A DNA stretch of 64,000 nt from Escherichia coli (lineage in GTDB: Bacteria > Pseudomonadota > Gammaproteobacteria > Enterobacterales > Enterobacteriaceae), in the NCBI RefSeq assembly GCF_003019035.1, contig NZ_CP027447.1. The stretch is one strand, 5' to 3'. How positions within the stretch are numbered: the stretch's first letter is position 1; every line of letters starts with the position of its first letter. A program made the position numbers and the translations under genes. Positions 1 to 57,652 of this stretch are shown here, in pieces. The notes below the pieces were generated by a model, which worked only from the letters and a program-made list of their open reading frames with translations, was not told the DNA's origin and ran no database searches.

Positions 1-532
1 CCCAGGTATGTTTCTGGCACATCGTTTCATGGTTATAGCCATAGAAATTGAGCGCGGCGAGGTTAGCATCAACGATTTGGCCATCTCGTGAGGGGTCAAT
101 CAACAACATTGGTGCAGAGTTAGTCAGAAAAAAGCGCGCATAAAAACCTTGTTTTTTGCGCTGATAATTTGCCGAGCGACTGGCTTTTAAACCCAGCGTT
201 GCCGGTGCTTCGATACCTTCGAAAATAATCACCGGTTCTGCTTCTGTCAGCTTTCGCAAAACAAGCCGACAGCTCAATGCTGTTTCCTCTTCATTGCGCT
301 GAACGGTGAGGATTTCGATAATATCGTGTTGGTTTTGCAGATCGGAGAGGTATTTCGGCAGTTCTTTTTGTGAGGAGACGGAATAGGGACCGGTTCGTAG
401 TTGACTAAACGTGAGGTTTTGCATCAACAGTCGCGCCGCGCTATTGGCATAAATTAACTGTTCCTCAAAGGGCGAAACGATCCAGACAGGACTGGTGAGT
501 AAGTCCAGGGTATTGAAGTTGTGCGTAATCAT
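1..532 (-). CDS. dgcM: Diguanylate cyclase DgcM (YdaM), N-terminal part; gene runs off the window start
   Basis: Reverse-strand ORF starting ATG at 530-532 translates MITHNFNTLDLLTSPVWIVSPFEEQLIYANSAA, matching recalled DgcM N-terminus; divergent from zntB as in K-12. Confidence 0.85.
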   Translation of the reverse strand, partial: MITHNFNTLDLLTSPVWIVSPFEEQLIYANSAARLLMQNLTFSQLRTGPYSVSSQKELPKYLSDLQNQHDIIEILTVQRNEEETALSCRLVLRKLTEAEPVIIFEGIEAPATLGLKASRSANYQRKKQGFYARFFLTNSAPMLLIDPSRDGQIVDANLAALNFYGYNHETMCQKHTW

Positions 533-765
533 TGAGATCCCGTTATTTTTATCAATTTTTGTTGCTATCCGATCGCAAAAAAGCCACGTCATATGATCAG
601 ATAATTCTGATAATGATAGACGCTATTTAACACTTCACACGGTTTGTATATGGAAAAGCATTTTGCTTTTTGTATTCAATTTAGACAGAATTTTATTAAT
701 CATTTCAGGGTAATGGGGTGATGAGATGTTGCGTAACAGGGCCAGAAGGCTAGACTACAAAATAA

Positions 766-1770
<1,005 letters not shown>

Positions 1771-1816
1771 CAAAAGCAATTTCTCCGGGATTCTGTATAC
1801 AAAAACGCCGTAAAGT

Positions 1817-1830
1817 TTGAGCGAAGTCAA
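1817..1830. promoter_or_regulatory. FNR box (TTGAG-N4-GTCAA) centred about 42 bp upstream of the fnrS start, class II position
   Basis: Near-palindromic match to TTGAT-N4-ATCAA consensus immediately upstream of fnrS. Confidence 0.6.
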
Positions 1831-1865
1831 TAAACTCCCTACCTATTCAGGGCAATATCTCTCTC

Positions 1866-1987
1866 GCAGGTGAATGCAACGTCAAGCGATGGGCGTTGCG
1901 CTCCATATTGTCTTACTTCCTTTTTTGAATTACTGCATAGCACAATTGATTCGTACGACGCCGACTTTGATGAGTCGGCTTTTTTTT
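1866..1987 (+). ncRNA. fnrS: FnrS small RNA (FNR-activated, Hfq-dependent)
   Basis: Sequence GCAGGUGAAUGCAACGUCAAGCGAUGGGCGUUGCGCUCC... ending in GC-rich hairpin GCCGACUUUGAUGAGUCGGC plus U-run; matches recalled FnrS and its zntB-dbpA position. Confidence 0.85.
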
Positions 1988-2044
1988 GCCTGTTATTTAT
2001 CAGCGTCTACCCTTTAAGAGTCCACCCAATGACCGGAGGGAAAT

Positions 2045-2218
2045 ATGACGACACTTATTTATTTGCAAATTCCTGTCCCTGAACCGATTCCTGGCGATCC
2101 TGTTCCAGTGCCCGATCCGATCCCTCGCCCGCAACCCATGCCTGACCCACCACCCGATGAAGAACCGATTAAATTGTCGCATCGTGAGCGTAGATCTGCG
2201 AGGATACGCGCCTGCTAA
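2045..2218 (+). CDS. Candidate small protein, 57 aa, proline-rich (MTTLIYLQIPVPEPIPGDPVPVPDPIPRPQPMPDPPPDEEPIKLSHRERRSARIRAC)
   Basis: ATG preceded by GGAGG at 5 nt spacing; below the ORF-track length cutoff; lies between the fnrS terminator and the dbpA start. Confidence 0.35.
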   Translation: MTTLIYLQIPVPEPIPGDPVPVPDPIPRPQPMPDPPPDEEPIKLSHRERRSARIRAC

Positions 2219-2247
2219 CTTTGCGTCGATGACCACGAGAATAGATT

Positions 2248-3621
2248 GTGACCGCTTTTTCTACCCTGAATGTTTTGCCTCCCGCCCAACTCACGAACCT
2301 TAATGAGTTGGGTTATTTAACCATGACGCTGGTGCAGGCCGCCGCGCTTCCGGCGATCCTTGCCGGAAAAGATGTTCGCGTGCAGGCGAAAACCGGCAGC
2401 GGCAAAACGGCGGCTTTTGGCCTCGGGCTGCTACAGAAAATTGATGCGTCGCTATTTCAGACCCAGGCTTTAGTGCTGTGTCCTACGCGTGAACTGGCGG
2501 ATCAGGTGGCAGGTGAATTGCGTCGGCTGGCGCGTTTTCTGCCAAATACCAAAATTTTGACGTTGTGCGGTGGTCAACCGTTCGGTATGCAGCGTGATTC
2601 GTTGCAACATGCGCCGCATATTATCGTGGCAACGCCGGGTCGTTTGCTGGATCACTTGCAAAAAGGCACGGTATCACTGGATGCGCTGAATACTTTGGTG
2701 ATGGATGAGGCCGACCGCATGCTGGATATGGGATTTAGCGATGCCATTGATGATGTCATCCGTTTTGCGCCTGCATCTCGACAGACGCTTTTGTTTTCGG
2801 CAACCTGGCCGGAAGCCATCACCGCAATCAGCGGACGAGTGCAACGCGATCCTTTAGCGATTGAAATTGACTCAACAGATGCTCTGCCACCTATTGAACA
2901 ACAATTTTATGAGACATCCAGCAAAGGCAAAATTCCGCTGTTGCAACGGTTATTAAGTTTGCATCAGCCATCCTCTTGCGTGGTGTTTTGCAATACCAAA
3001 AAAGATTGTCAGGCTGTCTGCGACGCGCTGAATGACATAGGGCAAAGTGCATTGTCGTTACATGGCGATCTGGAGCAACGTGACCGCGATCAGACCCTGG
3101 TACGTTTTGCTAACGGTAGCGCTCGTGTGCTGGTCGCGACGGATGTTGCTGCGCGTGGTCTTGATATTAAATCGCTTGAGCTGGTAGTGAACTTTGAACT
3201 GGCGTGGGACCCTGAAGTTCATGTACATCGCATCGGTCGTACAGCGCGTGCAGGAAATAGCGGTCTGGCGATCAGTTTCTGTGCCCCGGAAGAAGCACAG
3301 CGGGCCAATATCATTTCTGACATGTTGCAGATAAAACTTAACTGGCAAACGCCGCCAGTTAATAGTTCCATTGTGCCGCTGGAAGCAGAAATGGCAACGT
3401 TATGTATCGATGGCGGGAAAAAAGCCAAAATGCGCCCGGGTGATGTATTAGGTGCGCTGACAGGAGACATCGGGCTTGATGGCGCAGATATTGGCAAAAT
3501 CGCCGTGCATCCGGCGCATGTCTATGTCGCGGTGCGTCAGGCTGTTGCTCATAAAGCATGGAAACAGTTACAGGGCGGGAAGATTAAAGGAAAAACGTGC
3601 CGGGTGCGGTTATTAAAATAA
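2248..3621 (+). CDS. dbpA: ATP-dependent RNA helicase DbpA (DEAD-box, 23S rRNA specific), 457 aa
   Basis: ORF track; Walker A AKTGSGKT, DEAD motif VMDEAD, SAT motif. Confidence 0.95.
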   Translation: MTAFSTLNVLPPAQLTNLNELGYLTMTLVQAAALPAILAGKDVRVQAKTGSGKTAAFGLGLLQKIDASLFQTQALVLCPTRELADQVAGELRRLARFLPNTKILTLCGGQPFGMQRDSLQHAPHIIVATPGRLLDHLQKGTVSLDALNTLVMDEADRMLDMGFSDAIDDVIRFAPASRQTLLFSATWPEAITAISGRVQRDPLAIEIDSTDALPPIEQQFYETSSKGKIPLLQRLLSLHQPSSCVVFCNTKKDCQAVCDALNDIGQSALSLHGDLEQRDRDQTLVRFANGSARVLVATDVAARGLDIKSLELVVNFELAWDPEVHVHRIGRTARAGNSGLAISFCAPEEAQRANIISDMLQIKLNWQTPPVNSSIVPLEAEMATLCIDGGKKAKMRPGDVLGALTGDIGLDGADIGKIAVHPAHVYVAVRQAVAHKAWKQLQGGKIKGKTCRVRLLK

Positions 3622-3668
3622 TGAAATGTTGAATTGCCGGGTGCAAGAGTAAACATCTTATTCGGGAT

Positions 3669-3750
3669 TGCCGGATGCGACGCTGGCCGCGTCTTCTCCG
3701 GCCTCCATAAGAGTAGCCCGATAAGCTTGCGCATCGGGCGCTATCCGGGT
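3669..3750. repeat. REP/BIME-like extragenic palindromes between convergent dbpA and ttcA
   Basis: GCCGGATGCGACGCTGGCCGCGTCTTCTCCGGCC and a second palindrome CCCGATAAGC...GCGCATCGGGC. Confidence 0.6.
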
Positions 3751-4685
3751 TATTTCACTTCAACCACATTCAGTCGTAACTCATCCAACTGATTTTCATC
3801 TTCTTCAGGCTGCCAACCCGCCGGTTGTAGAGGGATCTCTTCGCGATCAAACGCCAGATCACCCCCGTTAACCACTTCAGAACCGTGGGTAATGCCTTTG
3901 AAATCGAACAGGTTGGTATCGCACAGATGCGACGGCACCACATTCTGCATCGCGCTGAACATCGTCTCGATACGCCCCGGATAACGTTTATCCCAGTCAC
4001 GCAACATGTCAGCAATCACCTGACGTTGCAGGTTAGGCTGTGAACCGCACAGGTTGCACGGAATAATCGGGAACGCTTTTGCATCGGCAAAGCGCTGAAT
4101 ATCTTTCTCGCGGCAGTAGGCCAGCGGACGAATAACGATATGTTTGCCATCATCGCTCATCAGTTTCGGAGGCATACCTTTCATCTTGCCGCCGTAGAAC
4201 ATATTTAAGAACAGCGTTTGCAGGATATCGTCACGATGGTGACCCAACGCGATCTTCGTCGCCCCCAGTTCCGTTGCGGTGCGATAAAGGATACCGCGAC
4301 GAAGACGAGAACACAGTGAGCAAGTGGTTTTGCCCTCCGGAATCTTCTCTTTCACGATACCGTAAGTGTTCTCTTCCACAATCTTGTACTCAACGCCCAG
4401 CTTTTCAAGATACTCGGGCAGAACGTGTTCCGGGAAGCCCGGTTGTTTTTGATCGAGGTTAACAGCCACCAGCGAAAAATTGATTGGCGCGCTTTGCTGC
4501 AAATTGCGCAGAATTTCCAGCATGGTATAGCTGTCTTTACCCCCGGAGAGGCAAACCATGATGCGATCGCCTTCTTCAATCATATTGAAGTCAGCAATGG
4601 CTTCGCCCACGTTACGACGCAGACGTTTTTGTAATTTGTTCAGGTTGTATTGTTCTTTCTTACTAATTTCTTGATTTTGCGACAT
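3750..4685 (-). CDS. ttcA: tRNA 2-thiocytidine(32) synthetase TtcA, 311 aa
   Basis: ORF track; PP-loop SGGKDS and CxxC pairs; N-terminus [10 protein letters not shown]. Confidence 0.93.
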
Positions 4686-4828
4686 TTAAAAGCGACTCAA
4701 TTCGTTATATGGCATCAGAAGAGTATGCGTCATGCCGGAACGCCCAGCATAAGAAATCTGATATAAAAACTGTGGCGTGTATGGTACGGATTAGAGGGGA
4801 AAATGTCAGCACATTTGCGAAATGAATC

Positions 4829-4857
4829 AAAAAGCCCGCAGCAATGTGCGGGCGTTA
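4829..4857 (-). terminator. Rho-independent terminator of uspF
   Basis: Hairpin GCCCGCA...TGCGGGC followed by a T-run on the minus strand, directly after the uspF stop. Confidence 0.6.
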
Positions 4858-4860
4858 GTG

Positions 4861-5376
<516 letters not shown>

Positions 5377-5404
5377 TTAGATCAAAGGAGGAAGAATAAG
5401 CAGA

Positions 5405-5430
5405 AAAAGCCCGCCATAACAGCGGGCAGG
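5405..5430 (-). terminator. Rho-independent terminator of ompN
   Basis: Minus-strand hairpin CCTGCCCGCTGTTATGGCGGGC followed by TTTTT. Confidence 0.6.
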
Positions 5431-5435
5431 AGGAT

Positions 5436-6554
5436 TTAGAACTGATAAACCAGACCTAAAGCGACAATATCATCGGTAGAGATGCCGTTGGCAGCGTAGA
5501 AGCTGTCATCTTCATCCAACAGGTTGATTTTATAGTCAACGTAGGTGGACATATTTTTGTTGAAATAGTAAGTCGCGCCAACATCGGCGTATTTAACCAG
5601 ATCTTTATCACCGTCGGTACCGACCAAATCCTTGCCTTTAGACATCAGGAAAGAGACTGCCGGACGCAGCCCAAAATCGAACTGATACTGCGCAGTAACT
5701 TCAAAGTTCTGGGTTTTGTTGGCAATCGTATTTGTTGAATCACCGTAAGGTGTCATGTTACGCGTTTCAGAATACATGGTCGCCAGGTAGATATTGTTAG
5801 CATCGTATTTTGCCCCGGCAGTCCAGGCGTCAGCCTTATCGCCTTTTGCGGTAGAGAATTCAGCCTGCTGGTTAGTGCGATCGGAGCTGGTATAGGCGGC
5901 ACCAAAACTCATGCCCATACCTAAGTCGTAGGTAGTGGAGATGCCAAAACCGTCGCCATTGGCGTTCTTAATGTTTCGATCACCACCGTTTGCGGTACCT
6001 TCTTGCTCATGGGTGACCTGGTTTTCATTCGCGCCCTGGTACTGTAACGCAAAATTCAGACCATCAACCAGACCGAAGAAATCAGTATTACGATAGGTTG
6101 CTACGCCATTGGCTCGACCGGTCATATAGTTATCGGCTTTGGTATAAGAGTCACCACCGAATTCCGGTAGCATATCGGTCCAGCCTTCGATGTCGTACAT
6201 TACGCCATAATTACGACCATAGTCGAATGAACCCAGGTCACCAAATTTCAGACCGGCAAAAGCAAGACGAGTCCAGGAATCACCTTTATCACCTTCAGAG
6301 CCATTAGCCTGCACGTTATATTCCCACTGGCCATACCCAACCAGTTGATCCGTGATTTGCGTTTCACCCTTAAAACCAAAACGCACGTAAGTTTGATCAC
6401 CATCACTATTGGTATTATCAGAAAAATAATGCAGGCCATCAACTTTGCCATACAGATCTAATTTGTTGCCGTCTTTATTATAAACTTCGGCTGCATGTGC
6501 AGCACCTGCGGCGAGCAGGGCAGGAATTAAAAGTGCCAGTACTTTGCTTTTCAT
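5436..6554 (-). CDS. ompN: Outer membrane porin OmpN (OmpC/OmpF family), 372 aa
   Basis: ORF track; signal peptide [22 protein letters not shown]-terminal ...LGLVYQF. Confidence 0.92.
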
Positions 6555-6781
6555 TGAATAAATCCTTTAGTTATTTTATTTGCCTTTTATCCCCATTTCG
6601 GGGAGTGAAAACATCCTAAAGGAGAAGTTCAGTTAGCCGATAAATATCATTTGTTACGCCTTAAGTAAAACCTTAATCAAATAATTCCTCTGAAATGATA
6701 ATAAGTCTGGTGAATGTATCGAAGATAATACATACAAAATAAAAATTATACTTTTAATTTGCTATACGTTATTCTTCGCGG

Positions 6782-6890
6782 GTTATATGCCTTTATTGTC
6801 ACAGATTTTATTTTCTGTTGGGCCATTGCATTGCCACTGATTTTCCAACATATAAAAAGACAAGCCCGAACAGTCGTCCGGGCTTTTTTT
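6782..6890 (+). ncRNA. micC: MicC small RNA (represses ompC)
   Basis: GUUAUAUGCCUUUAUUGUCACAGAUUUUAUUUUCUGUUGGGCCAUUGC... ending in hairpin CCCGAACAGUCGUCCGGGC plus U8; matches recalled MicC and its ompN-ydbK position. Confidence 0.85.
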
Positions 6891-6919
6891 TAGAATTGGA
6901 TAATCCTTATCCAGAGCAT

Positions 6920-9900
6920 TTAATCGGTGTTGCTTTTTTCCGCTTTTCCGGCCATTTGTGCCAGGAAGTCATAGCGTTTTTGCAAATCAGCTGCAGCATC
7001 TTTCCATAACTGTTCTGCCACTTCTGGCTGCTGCGAATTCAGACGACGGAAACGCTGCTCGTGAAGTAACGTTTCTTCCAGTGCTTCTGACGGCGGGCGT
7101 GAATCCAGCGCCAGCGGCAGTTTGCCTTCATCGGCACGACGAGGATCGAAGCGATATAGCGGCCAGAAGCCGGTAGCAGTGAGTTGGCGCATCTGGTCGT
7201 GGCTGAGAGCCAGATCGTAACCATGCTCTTCACACGGGCTATAAGCGATGATCAGCGATGGCCCCGGATACGCTTCCGCTTCCTGAATCGCTTTCACCGT
7301 CTGGTTCAGCTGTGCGCCGAGAGAAATCTGCGCCACATAAACATGACCGTACATCATCATACTGACGCCAAGATCTTTACGCGCTTTACGTTTGCCGTGC
7401 TCGCCAAACTTAGTTACTGCACCCAGCGGTGTCGCTTTCGACGCCTGGCCACCGGTGTTGGAATAGCATTGCGTATCCAGCACCAGAATGTTGACGTTTT
7501 CCGTCAAACTCAATACATGATCCAGACCACCAAAGCCGATATCGTAAGCCCAGCCGTCACCACCAATCAGCCAGATTGATTTTTCCACCAGAGCATCTGC
7601 GTCACGTAGCAGTTCATGTGCTTCGGCAACATCGTTGAGTTGCTGGCGTAAAGCTGCAACCTGTTCACGACGAATCTCTGGCGTAGCGTCTGATTTCAAC
7701 GCAGTCAGTAATTCCGCCGGGATTTTATCGGCAAATTGATCCAGCAGACGCAGCACGCGGACACGGTGTTGATCGACCGTCAGGCGGAAACCCAGGCCAA
7801 ATTCGGCGTTATCTTCAAACAGCGAGTTCGCCCATGCCGGCCCGCGACCGTTGGCATCGGTAGTATACGGTGTAGAGGGCAGGTTACCGCCATAAATTGA
7901 AGAACATCCAGTGGCGTTAGCGATCAACATCCGGTCGCCATACAGCTGAGTCAGCAATTTAATATACGGCGTCTCGCCACAACCGGAGCAAGCACCGGAA
8001 TATTCAAACAGCGGTGTAATCAGCTGTGATGTACGAATATCAATACGTTCCAGTTTGCTACGGTCGATTTCTGGCAGGTTGAGGAAGAAATCGTAATTGA
8101 TTTTCTCTTCTTCGACATGTTCCAGCCGCGACATCATATTGATGGCTTTAATCTCTGGATTCTGACGGTCTTTCGCCGGGCAAACTTCGACGCACAGGTT
8201 ACAACCGGTGCAATCTTCCGGAGCCACCTGCAAGACATATTTCTGCCCGCGCATATCACGCGATTTCACATCCAGCGAATGCAGGCTGGCAGGGGCGTTT
8301 TCCATCGCTTCAGGCGGTACCACTTTTGCGCGAATAGCTGAGTGTGGGCAAGCAGCGACGCAGTGGTTACATTGGGTACAGAGTTCCTCTTTCCAGATGG
8401 GGATCTCTTCGGCGATATTGCGTTTTTCCCAGCGCGTGGTGCCCATCGGCCAGGTGCCGTCTGGCGGCAGCGCCGAAACGGGGAGGGCATCACCAAGCCC
8501 GGCGAGCATCGCCGCGGTTACGGTTTTCACGAAATCAGGGGCGGCATCGGAAACCACTGGCGGTCGATTGGCGCTGTGCGGATTTACTGGTTGCAGCGGA
8601 ACTTCTTCTACGGATTCACGTGCCAGCGCCAGAGCCTGCCAGTTGCGTTCCACCAGATCCTGACCTTTGCTACTGTAACTTTTGGCAATCGCACCCTGCA
8701 ATTCTGCGAGGGCGCTATCGCCAGGCAGAATTTGCGTAAGATGGAAAAAAGCCATCTGCATGACGGTATTAATACGGGCCGCCAGGCCACATTCGCGGGC
8801 GATTTTCGCCGCGTTAATCACATAGAAGCGCGCTTTTTTCTGGTTTAACACGGCCTGAACTTCCTGCGGCAAGCGCGACCATACTTCATCTGCGCTGTAC
8901 GGCGTGTTGAGCAGGAAAATGCCGCCAGGTTTTAAACGTTCAGCCATCTGATATTTATCGATAAACTGCAACTGGTGGCAGCCAACAAAATCAGCCTGGG
9001 AAATCAGATAAGCGGAACGAATCGGCTGTTCGCTCACGCGAAGGTGAGAAACCGTCAGGCCGCCCGCCTTTTTGGAGTCGTAAACAAAATAGCCCTGTGC
9101 GTACCACGGCGTGGAATTACCGATAATCTTGATATTGTTTTTGGTCGCGGAAACGCTGCCATCACTACCAAGGCCATAAAACAAGGCTTCAAGTTTCGCC
9201 GAGTTTGGCAGGGTGTTTTCCGGCAACGGCAGTGACAGATTGGTCACATCATCGTAAATACCAACCGTAAAGCGCGCTTTCGGTTTAGCCGCGTTGAGCT
9301 CGGCAAATACCGCCAGTACACAGTCCGGGCCAAATTCTTTGGATGAAAGACCATAGCGCCCACCAATGACACGGGGCAGGGTTTCGCGCTCGCCATTATT
9401 AAAGGCTTCTGCCAGTGCGGTCATCACATCCAGGTACAGGGGTTCCGCTTGCGCACCTGGCTCTTTGGTGCGATCCAGCACCGCCACTGTCCGAACAGAG
9501 TCCGGCAACGCTTGCAGTAAGTGTTTGGCGGAGAAGGGGCGGTACAGGCGAACTTTCAGCACGCCGACTTTTTCGCCACGGGTTAGCAATTCATCAACCA
9601 CTTCTTCACAGGTGCCAATGGCTGAGCCCATCAGGATAATCACCCGTTCCGCTTGCGGATGCCCATAATACTCAAACGGCTGATACTGACGACCTGTCGC
9701 GGCAGCGAAATCATTCATCGCCTGTTCAACATGGTCATAGACCGCGTTGTACCAGGGGTTGGTGGCTTCGCGAGACTGGAAATAAGTGTCAGGATTGGCG
9801 GACGTACCGCGGATCACCGGATGTTCCGGGTTGAGCGCCCGGGCGCGATGAGCATCAATTTCGGCCTGCGGCATGAGATCAAGAATAGTGTCATCGGCCA

Positions 9901-10444
9901 GCGGGACAATTTTATTGATTTCGTGGGACGTGCGGAAACCATCAAAGAAATGAATAAATGGCACGCGGCTTTTCAGCGTCGCGATGTGCGAAATGAGAGC
10001 AAAGTCTTGCGCTTCCTGGACGTTTGCCGCACACAACATCGCGCAACCCGTCTGGCGCACCGCCATAACGTCGGAATGATCGCCAAAAATAGAGAGTGCA
10101 TGTGTGGCAACGGTACGTGCCGCTACATGCAGGACAAACGGTGTGAGTTCGCCTGCCAGTTTGTACAGCGTCGGGATCATCAGCAGCAAACCCTGCGATG
10201 ACGTAAACGATGTTGAAAGGGCACCCGTCTGCAAAGCGCCATGCACGGTAGCGATAGCACCCGCTTCCGACTGCATTTCAACCACGCGTGGTGTGTCTCC
10301 CCAAACGTTCTTCAAGCCGTTTCCGGCCCAGGCATCAGCCTGTTCTGCCATCGTGGAACTGGGGGTAATAGGGTAGATGGCGATAACTTCACTGGTGCGA
10401 AACGCCACCGAAGCAACCGCGCCATTACCGTCAATAGTAATCAT
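6920..10444 (-). CDS. ydbK: Pyruvate:flavodoxin/ferredoxin oxidoreductase (PFOR, NifJ-like), 1174 aa
   Basis: ORF track; two ferredoxin-type CxxCxxCxxxCP motifs and TPP-binding GDG region. Confidence 0.93.
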   Translation of the reverse strand: MITIDGNGAVASVAFRTSEVIAIYPITPSSTMAEQADAWAGNGLKNVWGDTPRVVEMQSEAGAIATVHGALQTGALSTSFTSSQGLLLMIPTLYKLAGELTPFVLHVAARTVATHALSIFGDHSDVMAVRQTGCAMLCAANVQEAQDFALISHIATLKSRVPFIHFFDGFRTSHEINKIVPLADDTILDLMPQAEIDAHRARALNPEHPVIRGTSANPDTYFQSREATNPWYNAVYDHVEQAMNDFAAATGRQYQPFEYYGHPQAERVIILMGSAIGTCEEVVDELLTRGEKVGVLKVRLYRPFSAKHLLQALPDSVRTVAVLDRTKEPGAQAEPLYLDVMTALAEAFNNGERETLPRVIGGRYGLSSKEFGPDCVLAVFAELNAAKPKARFTVGIYDDVTNLSLPLPENTLPNSAKLEALFYGLGSDGSVSATKNNIKIIGNSTPWYAQGYFVYDSKKAGGLTVSHLRVSEQPIRSAYLISQADFVGCHQLQFIDKYQMAERLKPGGIFLLNTPYSADEVWSRLPQEVQAVLNQKKARFYVINAAKIARECGLAARINTVMQMAFFHLTQILPGDSALAELQGAIAKSYSSKGQDLVERNWQALALARESVEEVPLQPVNPHSANRPPVVSDAAPDFVKTVTAAMLAGLGDALPVSALPPDGTWPMGTTRWEKRNIAEEIPIWKEELCTQCNHCVAACPHSAIRAKVVPPEAMENAPASLHSLDVKSRDMRGQKYVLQVAPEDCTGCNLCVEVCPAKDRQNPEIKAINMMSRLEHVEEEKINYDFFLNLPEIDRSKLERIDIRTSQLITPLFEYSGACSGCGETPYIKLLTQLYGDRMLIANATGCSSIYGGNLPSTPYTTDANGRGPAWANSLFEDNAEFGLGFRLTVDQHRVRVLRLLDQFADKIPAELLTALKSDATPEIRREQVAALRQQLNDVAEAHELLRDADALVEKSIWLIGGDGWAYDIGFGGLDHVLSLTENVNILVLDTQCYSNTGGQASKATPLGAVTKFGEHGKRKARKDLGVSMMMYGHVYVAQISLGAQLNQTVKAIQEAEAYPGPSLIIAYSPCEEHGYDLALSHDQMRQLTATGFWPLYRFDPRRADEGKLPLALDSRPPSEALEETLLHEQRFRRLNSQQPEVAEQLWKDAAADLQKRYDFLAQMAGKAEKSNTD

Positions 10445-10717
10445 ATGACACCCTTACATTGCGCAAATGAGGGGCGCACGAAATTGCTGCGCGCCCAGTA
10501 GTAATCCTTCAATTTTAGCAAATGGCTTTCTTCTGCATTTTCGCTTTTGTGTCCCCCACATCAGCGTAATGAATGTTTTGATCAAACAGAGGGCAAAAAA
10601 ATAGCCATAAAAAAGTAAAAATGCGGGGCAACGCGCAGGACAGCTCTCGACGCCGCCCTCTGTGCTGCCTATTATTTATGGCGGTGTCGTTTGGCTTGAA
10701 GATCAGAGGAAGAAAAG

Positions 10718-10984
10718 ATGCGAGCAGCGTTTTGGGTAGGGTGTGCCGCTTTATTGTTGTCGGCGTGTAGTAGTGAACCTGTTCAGCAGGCGACTGCGGC
10801 GCACGTAGCGCCAGGTTTAAAAGCGTCGATGTCCAGTAGTGGAGAAGCAAATTGTGCAATGATCGGCGGTTCGCTTTCTGTTGCCCGTCAACTGGATGGT
10901 ACGGCGATTGGGATGTGTGCATTACCCAACGGCAAACGCTGTAGCGAACAGTCACTTGCCGCCGGGAGCTGTGGCAGCTATTAA
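10718..10984 (+). CDS. ydbJ: Small lipoprotein YdbJ (DUF333), 88 aa
   Basis: ORF track; lipobox LLLSAC. Confidence 0.85.
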   Translation: MRAAFWVGCAALLLSACSSEPVQQATAAHVAPGLKASMSSSGEANCAMIGGSLSVARQLDGTAIGMCALPNGKRCSEQSLAAGSCGSY

Positions 10985-11403
10985 TTCATTAAATCCGCCA
11001 GCTTATAAGTTAATGTCTGTTTCGCGGTCGCCAGCGTTAACTGGTTCGCGGTCAGATCCACTTGTGCACCTTCTTTCAGCATTTCGCTAATGGTGTTATC
11101 GAGTTCATTAAGCTGCGGGTTAGCGCACATCATACGGGTCATTGCCAGCCCTTTGGCTGTCAGTTCACCATTAGACAGTTTGCCTTCACCGCTAAAGCGG
11201 TTACACATGCTGCCGGAAATCATCATTTTTTCACCAAAGCTGATTTCTGGCGGATTTTTATCGCTGGTCACGGGCTTACCGTTTACGCTTTCCAGCACAA
11301 AGCGATGATGCTGTAGCTGTTCTGGCGTAACAGCAATTTTGTCATTACTTACACATCCCGCCATCAGCAGGCTTAGCGCAACAAACGCGGCTACTTTCTT
11401 CAT
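10981..11403 (-). CDS. hslJ: Heat-shock lipoprotein HslJ, 140 aa
   Basis: ORF track frame; start at MKKVAAFVALSLLMAGC (lipobox). Confidence 0.9.
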   Translation of the reverse strand: MKKVAAFVALSLLMAGCVSNDKIAVTPEQLQHHRFVLESVNGKPVTSDKNPPEISFGEKMMISGSMCNRFSGEGKLSNGELTAKGLAMTRMMCANPQLNELDNTISEMLKEGAQVDLTANQLTLATAKQTLTYKLADLMN

Positions 11404-11513
11404 TGTGGTTCTCAATTACAGTTTCTGACTCACGACTATTTTAAGAATAGAGAATGAAAGGTCATTGGGGATTATCTGAATCAGCTCCCCTGGATTGCAG
11501 GGGAGCGGCAAGA

Positions 11514-27403: not shown

Positions 27404-30467
<3,064 letters not shown>

Positions 30468-30476
30468 GCGGATTGA

Positions 30477-51400: not shown

Positions 51401-51427
51401 CGCGCCATCGTTAGATGGCGCTTTTTA
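51401..51427 (+). terminator. Rho-independent terminator after ydcL
   Basis: GCGCCATC-GTTA-GATGGCGC followed by TTTTT. Confidence 0.7.
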
Positions 51428-51689
51428 TCCGGTGCGCCGTAAAACCCCGTCCTTCAGGGCGGGGATATAAGGCGCGGTTTTGCACCTGACCAGGTGTTTG
51501 CTGTTGTTCAATGTATTGGCGGATGACGGATATTGGCGCACCTCCGCAGCTACTGGCAAAATAGCCAGGACTCCACAAAACGCCTTTGTAGTAATACCTG
51601 ACTGCAATATCTGGTCGATCTCGTCGCAGTAACCTACCCGATACGCCTTTGAGGCTGTTTACCAGACTGGATATCGCCAGTTTGGGAGG

Positions 51690-51917
51690 TTAGTTAATTA
51701 ACAAATGGACGTGATCTGGTTCGCCATCCATTTCAACCAGTTCAGCTTCAAAATCAGCACATACATTTGAAAAGTAAGTGCGTAGTTTTTCTGTCGCGTC
51801 ATGGTCAAAAATCTGGCGTCGGTATCTGGTGACAAAGACCAGATGAACATGCATCAGGAAAACACAATGCCTTCCACGCCGGATATCGGTTTCTTTTTTC
51901 ACAGACCAAAGTATCAT
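51690..51917 (-). pseudogene. insP: IS200-type HUH transposase TnpA, truncated to 75 aa
   Basis: MILWSVKKETDIRRGRHCVFLMHVHLVFVTRYRRQ... has the HxH (HVH) motif but stops at about half normal length, before where the catalytic Tyr normally lies. Confidence 0.7.
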
Positions 51918-51924
51918 TTGACCT

Positions 51925-53133
51925 GTGAAACGATTACAGGCATTTAAATTCCAGTTAAGACCAGGTGGTCAACAGGAGTGTGAAATGAGGCGCTTCGCAG
52001 GCGCATGTCGTTTCGTTTTCAATCGTGCTCTGGCACGTCAGAATGAGAATCATGAGGCCGGTAATAAATACATCCCTTACGGGAAAATGGCTTCCTGGCT
52101 GGTTGAGTGGAAAAATGCCACTGAAACGCAATGGCTTAAAGATTCTCCCTCACAGCCATTGCAACAGTCACTGAAAGACCTTGAGCGGGCTTACAAAAAC
52201 TTCTTCCGGAAGCGGGCTGCTTTTCCCCGATTCAAAAAGCGGGGACAGAATGATGCATTCCGCTACCCGCAGGGCGTTAAGCTCGATCAGGAAAACAGCC
52301 GTATTTTTCTGCCGAAACTGGGCTGGATGCGCTACCGGAATAGCCGTCAGGTCACGGGTGTTGTGAAAAATGTCACTGTCAGCCAGTCCTGCGGTAAGTG
52401 GTACATCAGTATTCAGACAGAAAGTGAAGTATCCACTCCGGCTCACCCTTCAGCATCAATGGTCGGGCTGGATGCTGGCGTGGCTAAACTCGCCACGCTG
52501 TCAGATGGCACAGTCTTTGAGCCTGTAAACAGTTTTCAGAAAAACCAGAAGACGCTGGCGAGACTTCAGCGACAGTTAAGCCGCAAGGTCAAATTCAGCA
52601 ACAACTGGCAGAAGCAGAAACGCAAAATACAGCGACTGCATTCCTGTATCGCAAATATCCGCAGGGACTACCTTCACAAAGTCACAACGGCCGTCAGCAA
52701 AAACCACGCAATGATAGTCATTGAGGATTTGAAGGTCAGCAACATGTCAAAGTCAGCAGCGGGTACGGTCAGCCAGCCGGGGCGCAATGTCCGGGCAAAA
52801 TCAGGTTTAAACCGTTCGATACTGGATCAGGGCTGGTATGAAATGCGCCGCCAGCTTGAGTACAAGCAGCTCTGGCGTGGCGGTCAGGTGCTTGCTGTTC
52901 CGCCAGCGTATACAAGCCAGCGTTGCGCGTACTGTGGTCATACAGCGAAAGAGAACCGCCTGTCACAAAGTAAATTCAGATGCCAGGTATGTGGATATAC
53001 AGCGAACGCCGATGTAAATGGCGCTCGTAACATTTTAGCGGCGGGGCACGCCGTTCTTGCCTGTGGAGAGATGGTGCAGTCAGGCCGCCCGTTGAAGCAG
53101 GAACCCACCGAAATGATTCAGGCGACAGCCTGA
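51925..53133 (+). CDS. insQ: TnpB (OrfB) of IS200/IS605 family, 402-aa frame from GTG
   Basis: ORF track [35 protein letters not shown]...; C-terminal zinc-finger CxxC...CxxC (CAYCGH...[18 protein letters not shown]). Confidence 0.88.
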
Positions 53134-57332: not shown

Positions 57333-57652
57333 CCCGCCACCTTTTTCTAACCTTTTGCCGCTATGATGCCAATCGTTTCTTGAGGTTATTATTCAGTTTT
57401 GCAAATTAGCGCAAAGAAATTCTGGAATCTTCCTTCCTGATTTTGCATTGCATTCTGCCGTTGCGGCGATTTAGTGCTATTTTCGAGCAAATTACACACG
57501 GAGGTAAAAAAATCGACGCCGTCCAGCTCGCGGCTAAGGCGCTTGGCAAAGAGTTATCACTGGTGATGGTTTAATTACAGTTAACGAAAAGTTGTCATTT
57601 TTAACAACTGATATAGACTGCCGAATCATCTGCACATAATTACGATTCGATA

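Follow-up and report, generated by a model that had tools for sequence, protein, structure and literature searches.

An unoccupied Rac attachment site in ttcA of Escherichia coli and an adjacent integrase-like block that may act as the ttcA promoter

The Rac prophage occupies the interval between ttcA and ttcC' (Liu et al. 2015, Sci Rep 5:16074, PMC4632033). Because its attL and attR are imperfect matches, the excision of Rac alters four N-terminal residues of TtcA, and 14 Rac-free strains of E. coli and Shigella had exactly the post-excision TtcA' N-terminus, which was termed the ancient copy (PMC4632033). This Rac-free TtcA' state was repeated in a review (PMC6379469) and by Negri et al. 2023 (PMC11014345). 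The published descriptions of the change disagree, with four residues given in PMC4632033 and only Q6E and T8S in PMC11014345; the sequences compared here give four TtcA differences, if the crossover occurs inside the 26-bp core of the attachment site. In e14 and phage 21, both in icd, and in DLP12 at argU, the phage also substitutes a gene end, the host gene remains functional, and attL and attR differ slightly, as in Rac (PMC6379469). However, these three elements replace 3' ends, whereas Rac replaces a 5' end, and a promoter must therefore come with it. In this respect, a comparable system is HK022 at torS, which, like Rac, is a lambdoid prophage situated just upstream of a host gene, parting the gene from its own promoter (Carey et al. 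2019, eLife 8:e49081, PMC6814406). In this precedent, the transcription of torS starts at an outward-facing phage promoter close to attL, beside int; the promoter was mapped experimentally, is located downstream of int, and changes the regulation of the host gene (PMC6814406). Unlike the HK022 promoter, the candidate ttcA promoter described here would lie inside the int coding sequence and would be homologous to the promoter of the empty site. Int pseudogene fragments stay at the attachment sites of genomic islands, for example, beside tRNA genes. Similarly, a 3' piece of int was retained beside the att site after prophage decay in E. albertii, Kluyvera, Brenneria, and the E2348/69 type of E. 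coli. However, unlike the fragments in islands, the piece kept at ttcA has been reduced to a particular block of 50 nt, and the conservation of this block between families points to functional selection and not to gradual decay.

The window (the whole 64-kb stretch of DNA analyzed here) was collinear throughout with the chromosome of E. coli SCU-301, with 99.99% identity. In the SCU-301 annotation, the two genes of interest are labeled ttcA and uspF and lie side by side, within the gene order dgcM, zntB, ynaL, dbpA, ttcA, uspF, porin, and nifJ/ydbK (Table 1). The TtcA protein of the window matched PF01171 (PP-loop family) in a Pfam search (E=1.2e-13). The gap between ttcA and uspF (4686-4860) was exactly 175 bp, and was thus as long as the approximately 175 bp reported in a first-pass annotation, which had also described the gap as free of prophage genes and the Rac functions as missing from the locus. 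All three statements held. A tblastn search of the 64-kb window with K-12 IntR detected no integrase and only one weak 30-aa match, located inside the gap (E=0.088), and a blastn comparison of the window with the whole 23-kb Rac prophage returned nothing beyond the short att homology; these searches, together with the SCU-301 annotation, agreed on the lack of prophage genes in the gap, and recET, ralR/ralA, kilR, and the other Rac genes were absent here. The first-pass annotation had also called the locus native and without an integrase. The allele is indeed uninterrupted and contains no integrase gene, but there is a 51-nt integrase-like segment within the gap. A 51-aa ORF at 4730-4885 on the minus strand, which traverses the uspF terminator and enters the 3' end of uspF, was rejected as a gene and was instead interpreted as an in-frame shadow of this integrase-like block. 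An Rfam search of positions 1-12000 detected no family in the gap, and the only families nearby were the small RNAs FnrS (1866-1983, plus strand, 134.8 bits, between zntB and ynaL) and MicC (6779-6899, plus strand, 125.3 bits, between the porin gene and ydbK/nifJ).

Table 1. Features of the ttcA-uspF region, in positions of the window unless a locus sequence is named
Feature	Position	Strand	Remarks
ttcA, tRNA 2-thiocytidine(32) synthetase	3750-4685	minus	311-aa ORF, uninterrupted allele, ATG at 4685
Rac att core (attB), 26 bp, AAGAAAGAACAATACAACCTGAACAA	4636-4661	minus	ttcA codons 9-17
Extended imperfect homology to the Rac ends	4636-4678	minus	43 bp, 93% identity, blastn of Rac against the window
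ttcA codons 1-8, Rac-free type (ATG TCG CAA AAT CAA GAA ATT AGT)	4662-4685	minus	Identical to the K-12 ttcC pseudogene at attR
E2348/69-type remnant	L004 17801-20000 = window 4636 to ~4790		Between ttcA and uspF, in place of Rac
51-nt int-like block	4766-4816	minus	Homologous to Rac-type intR codons 345-361 (KRAGIRRRNPYHTRHTF, box II)
Putative ttcA transcription start	near 4774	minus	Placed from the position of the predicted -10
Predicted -10 of ttcA, TACCAT	4781-4786	minus	Inside the conserved 14-mer AATCCGTACCATAC (4779-4792)
Predicted -35 of ttcA, CTGACA	4804-4809	minus	Sigma-70-like site, 17-nt spacer
uspF intrinsic terminator	4834-4853	minus	GC-rich hairpin, 7-bp stem with 6 GC pairs, then TTTTTGATTC (T-run); terminator scan
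uspF, universal stress protein F	4861-5295	minus	PF00582 (Usp), E=3.7e-31; start and stop codons verified

Several other features were observed elsewhere in the window. An intact autotransporter gene of 5,964 nt (16316-22279, plus strand; SCU-301 tag HHJ43_RS12635) was located between pdxI and ydbL and contained internal direct repeats at ~16650-16954, with self-hits of 87-93% identity; its position corresponds to that of ydbA, a pseudogene interrupted by insertion sequences in K-12. Between ydcR and yncJ (57497-57574, plus strand), all that was left of a HicB-family antitoxin gene was a fragment of 78 nt; K-12 has the hicAB toxin-antitoxin pair at this place, and the hicAB module appears to have been deleted in this strain. 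An IS200/IS605-family element was found between ydcO and ydcL (51411-53133), in which tnpA was a pseudogene with an internal stop and the adjoining insQ/TnpB-type gene, for an RNA-guided endonuclease, was intact. The ynbD gene (29176-30468, plus strand) is a pseudogene with an internal stop according to the SCU-301 annotation.

The annotation of K-12 (NC_000913.3) gives Rac the coordinates 1411899-1434958 and has ttcA-intR on one side of it and the ttcC pseudogene-uspF on the other, in the order ttcA, intR, xisR ... ynaE, ynaM, ttcC (a 51-nt pseudogene), uspF. A three-way alignment and a comparison of 100-nt segments revealed that the window consists of the left part of K-12 attR (the uspF side, through the eight ttcA codons listed in Table 1) followed by the right part of attL (the rest of ttcA). 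The alignment with attL and attR placed a 26-bp core at the junction, which was identical in K-12 attL, K-12 attR, and the window, and an exact string search located AAGAAAGAACAATACAACCTGAACAA once in the window and twice in K-12, where the copies coincide with the annotated ends of Rac. As the window joins attR-left to attL-right across this shared core, the locus is very probably the unoccupied chromosomal attB of Rac-type lambdoid prophages. Judged by these alignments, the predicted target of IntR is the core within ttcA codons 9-17. In K-12, the insertion of Rac at the core has replaced ttcA codons 1-8 and everything upstream of them with phage DNA, and the arrangement in the window is identical to the product of Rac excision, which indirectly supports a role of the site as a substrate for IntR-mediated integration. 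Whereas K-12 TtcA starts with MQENQQITKK, the window TtcA differs at four of the first eight residues (positions 2, 3, 6, and 8), and the mismatches between attL and attR fall where these four changes arise. The first-pass annotation had claimed that the TtcA N-terminus is unlike the MQENQQ... of K-12 and that Rac sits at the 5' end of K-12 ttcA, supplying a new N-terminus; the annotation of K-12 and the alignment bear it out on both points. Its proposal of an unoccupied attB was right in that the window is the expected attR-left/attL-right join, but the segment it had flagged, 4686-4860, is not the att site, which lies within ttcA.

Two observations were made at the Rac ends of K-12. Direct repeats of the form TTTGCCCC-N5/6-TTTGCCCC are present on the phage side of both ends (L001, our K-12 locus sequence, ~4955-4990 and ~27890-27930), one pair between the intR stop codon and ttcA and the other just within attR, and similar GCCCC pairs follow the stop codon of the related integrases at loci L009, L171, L172, L173, and L175; these paired GCCCC-type repeats are probably the arm-type Int-binding sites of attP. 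At attR, the resident promoter block (L001 28091-28141) and the 17-codon ttcC stub (27959-28009) persist and point into the right end of Rac, toward ynaM and ynaE. Rac genes of K-12 may thus have come under the control of the displaced ttcA promoter.

To place the allele within the species, 5,426 complete E. coli genomes were surveyed with megablast, of which 5,410 had a match. The ttcA-uspF region was uninterrupted in 2,488 of the 5,410 (~46%), and intR sequence abutted ttcA in 2,910 (~54%); in the Rac-bearing genomes, the alignment broke at query position 337, i.e., at window position 4636. The second class of break, at query position 490 (~4789 in the window), had been considered as a second integration site, and this candidate was rejected. 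In 1,044 of the 2,910 genomes with abutting intR sequence, ST131 strains included, the sequence beside ttcA is not a prophage but a remnant of ~2.3 kb, of the type found in E2348/69, which comprises a 231-bp 3' fragment of int, a DUF1627 fragment, and a frameshifted gene annotated as a 'metal ABC transporter permease'. The deletion endpoint of this remnant on the uspF side lies near 4781-4790, which explains the second class of break. Its TtcA keeps the K-12-type N-terminus, and the remnant cannot excise because attR and ttcC have been deleted. The E2348/69-type remnant probably accounts for the CFT073 'exception' of Liu et al., who noted potB in CFT073 as another site of an IntR-type integrase.

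The unoccupied Rac attB in ttcA is therefore an ordinary and already published state. The locus, the core, and the N-terminal change are those described for the Rac attB/TtcA' allele in PMC4632033 and PMC11014345, and the attB itself is no different; the Rac-free finding as first written adds nothing to this knowledge, but informs annotators which Rac genes are missing here (recET, ralRA, kilR, the racR module, and others). The region upstream of ttcA is not described in PMC4632033 or PMC11014345 as containing an integrase-like block or a promoter, and the sole part that may be new is the integrase-like promoter block. The uninterrupted site could also have been restored by the precise IntR/XisR-mediated excision of a Rac prophage carried by a recent ancestor, rather than never having been occupied by modern Rac. 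Rac is excision-proficient, its excision gives exactly this sequence together with the TtcA' N-terminus, and intR sequence is at the site in more than half of the E. coli genomes. However, the excision product and the never-occupied sequence are the same, so the sequence favors neither reading, and the occurrence of the allele in nearly half of the genomes, with the same N-terminal type in Citrobacter, fits long vertical persistence; we consider a recent excision rather unlikely.

Within the gap, a scan of positions 4560-4960 on the ttcA strand detected only one sigma-70-like site, which matched at 9 of 12 positions (0.6 sites expected in shuffles) and would leave a leader of ~95 nt. Both predicted hexamers are enclosed by the 51-nt integrase-like block (Table 1). 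In a local alignment, the block was identical to intR codons 345-361 at 39 of 51 positions, including an exact 16-mer, and this part of intR, the box II region, encodes the site of the catalytic Arg and His. The alignment score was 27, as against 11.8 +/- 1.3 in 1,000 dinucleotide shuffles of the gap, none of which reached 27 (z about 11). The in-frame translation of the block, KCADIFPSNPYHTRHSF, keeps the catalytic R-H codons, and the block runs in the same direction with respect to ttcA as the int gene of a lysogen does, at 107 nt from the ATG here versus 231 nt there. No Pfam hit was obtained at E<=10 for the 56-aa conceptual translation of the gap, a fragment too short for this search. The segment is probably a relic of an integrase gene, and the site therefore resembles an old scar more than it does untouched DNA. 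As the 87 nt on the 3' side of the block, in the 5' UTRs of E. coli and Citrobacter, had no significant similarity to the 3' end of int, the interpretation of the E. coli site as a scar is carried by the 51-nt block alone. The consensus match and conservation of the hexamers suggest that the block is probably also the ttcA promoter. The supplements of the Cappable-seq (PMC4782308), Shigella M90T (PMC7132871), ROSE (PMC10301672), and Salmonella ChIP-exo (PMC10794520) studies and the Rend-seq annotation (PMC11092163) contained no usable entry for the ttcA or intR starts. A promoter scan of the 3' end of K-12 intR returned no site above the threshold, with a weak -35 (CTGGTA, 3/6).

The block was then compared across species in a sample of 80 ttcA loci, one per species, of which ~30 were from the Enterobacterales. 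A full IntR-type integrase lay directly upstream of ttcA in three of the ~30 Enterobacterales, and only a C-terminal integrase fragment was present in six others (E. albertii, Kluyvera, Brenneria, two labeled Enterobacter sp., and one unclassified Enterobacteriaceae isolate), indicating that ttcA is a long-used integration site at which decayed occupants are common. Codons 345-361 were retained in all six of the decayed fragments adjoining ttcA and in the E2348/69-type remnant. At integrase-free sites, the block was found 55-145 nt upstream of the ATG in Citrobacter, Pseudocitrobacter, E. asburiae, Superficieibacter, Pectobacterium, Mangrovibacter, Rahnella, Budvicia, and seven Vibrionaceae. 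The motif TCCGTAYCATAC, with <=2 mismatches, occurred in 26 of the 80 loci, against a background of 0.009 per 300 nt. In the multiple alignment, the block formed a sharp island, with flanks that do not align between genera. The arrangement CTGRCA/CTAGCA-17 nt-TAYCAT was conserved in the Enterobacterales and Vibrionaceae, where the flanks are unalignable, and the conservation that extends to Vibrio covers the two hexamers, their 17-nt spacing, and the bases right around the -10; in Vibrio, the promoter blocks alone match. The distribution within the Enterobacterales was patchy, and the block was absent from Yersinia, Serratia, and the Morganellaceae. When read in frame, the host blocks gave NPYHTRHSF in E. 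coli, NPYHTRHSC in Salinivibrio, and NPYHTRHNH in Pectobacterium. The TtcA N-terminus of Citrobacter was of the same type as that in the window (MSQNQDISKK).

The corresponding part of the integrase gene was unusually conserved at the DNA level. K-12 IntR and the Enterobacter cloacae integrase share 70% protein identity, and the third positions of their conserved residues were identical in 42% of cases overall but in 16 of 17 within codons 344-361, the maximum for the gene. When five ttcA-adjacent integrases that were 62-71% identical (K-12, E. cloacae, Dickeya, Klebsiella, and Obesumbacterium) were compared, 183 columns had an invariant degenerate residue, and the codon itself was invariant in 17 of them. 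Eight of these 17 codons fell within codons 345-361 (hypergeometric p=2e-6), including four consecutive ones, AAT CCG TAC CAT. A natural control was provided by an integrase of Yersinia pseudotuberculosis that does not lie beside ttcA: it keeps NPYHTRHTY, but with the codons AAT CCA TAC CAC ACT and no -35-like hexamer, and so differs from the ttcA-adjacent integrases at exactly the frozen synonymous sites. Sister integrases at other loci have xxYQ[ST]RHT, with unrelated codon choices and no promoter-like DNA; these were from VT2-Sakai, an Stx1 phage, RCIP0034, CobraSix, YYZ-2008, Serratia (next to an AI-2E transporter gene), and Pantoea (next to a short-chain dehydrogenase gene). One ttcA-adjacent integrase, at locus L173, is a counter-example, with NPYQT, TACCAG, and CAGGTA at the -35, so that the key T of the -10 is missing; at this locus, a TATAAT is present between two GCCCC repeats, 3' of the integrase stop codon. 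A scan of IMG/VR with IntR returned just 99-100% identical copies and was hence useless for the analysis of divergence. In Y. pseudotuberculosis contig CABIAJ010000243.1 (locus L175, 1501-2736), the IntR-clade integrase is followed downstream by an amino-acid permease gene on the opposite strand, and its location away from ttcA suggests a switch of target site within the IntR clade.

These observations can be accommodated in the following scheme. Integration at 4636-4661 shifts ttcA codons 1-8 and the upstream DNA away by the length of the prophage (23 kb in K-12), and the phage provides the replacement codons found in K-12 ttcA. The phage would also provide a ttcA promoter, embedded in int codons ~346-357 and lying 231 nt upstream of the ATG in lysogens, and this int-borne promoter would keep ttcA expressed once the resident promoter had been moved away. 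The decay of a prophage would then leave this piece of int behind, and the Rac-free allele of E. coli would be the attL scar of an earlier occupant, in which case the MSQNQEIS codons of the Rac-free TtcA may themselves have been supplied by a phage. A promoter inside int would explain both the freeze at synonymous sites and the survival of the block in decayed prophages. In its full form, this reading states that the IntR-type int carries the ttcA promoter in its catalytic codons (A-G-I ... N-P-Y-H-T), that the ttcA promoter of prophage-free Enterobacterales and Vibrionaceae is a domesticated int fragment, that every empty ttcA attB is a scar, that the variable first eight TtcA residues are phage-supplied, and that the active site and the promoter are under dual selection. 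We propose it tentatively, on comparative grounds, and regard it as possible but somewhat short of probable as a whole.

The descent could also have run in the opposite direction, with the 51-nt block as the ancestral native promoter of ttcA, which Rac-type integrases came to mimic, and with the E. coli site truly virgin. This would fit the Vibrionaceae, in which the block lies upstream of ttcA and no IntR-type integrase was seen at the site, and the fact that the ttcA integrases differ from the sister clades by a change from KAYQS to NPYHT that brings about the match and supplies the essential T of the -10. However, the wider integrase family already has P-Y-Q-[ST]-R-H, encoded by CCN TAY CAR, which is almost the host block and would be an unexplained coincidence under mimicry. 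The host copies also run on in frame through the catalytic Arg-His codons of box II, which indicates that the integrase did not borrow the sequence from a host promoter. Furthermore, in Pectobacterium, Pseudocitrobacter, Superficieibacter, and BIGb0383, the match to int extends to the spacer and the upstream GTAAAACG, which have no promoter role, and the block is patchy within the Enterobacterales. A native promoter copied by integrases thus seems unlikely, and the origin of the host promoter as an integrase relic is favored over the mimicry of a native promoter by the integrase, as far as sequence comparison can tell.

The conserved DNA within int might be another kind of cis element, such as a distal protein-binding site of the attP arm, and its copies at empty sites neutral debris. 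The synonymous conservation demonstrates a constraint at the DNA level but not its kind, and the K-12 copy is a poor consensus promoter. Neutral debris, however, would not hold a sharp island of 45-50 nt between families whose flanks are unalignable; what is conserved out to Vibrio is precisely the two hexamers and their 17-nt spacing; and the block is ~255 nt from the core. We regard this explanation as improbable. A chance similarity between the gap and intR, to which the single tblastn match in the 64-kb window, at a poor E value, and the lack of a Pfam hit for the 56-aa translation could be taken to point, was rejected and has a negligible probability, given that no shuffle reached the observed score, that the match includes an exact 16-mer, that the block has the position and orientation of int in lysogens, and that it recurs in 26 of 80 species, far above the background.

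The importance of an integrase-embedded promoter, if it is real, would be modest. It would mean that a phage pays for integration at the 5' end of a gene by carrying the host promoter within the codons of its own integrase, and that, in two bacterial orders, a host promoter has been made out of integrase debris. The published view of the Rac-free allele as simply an 'ancient copy' would then need to be qualified.
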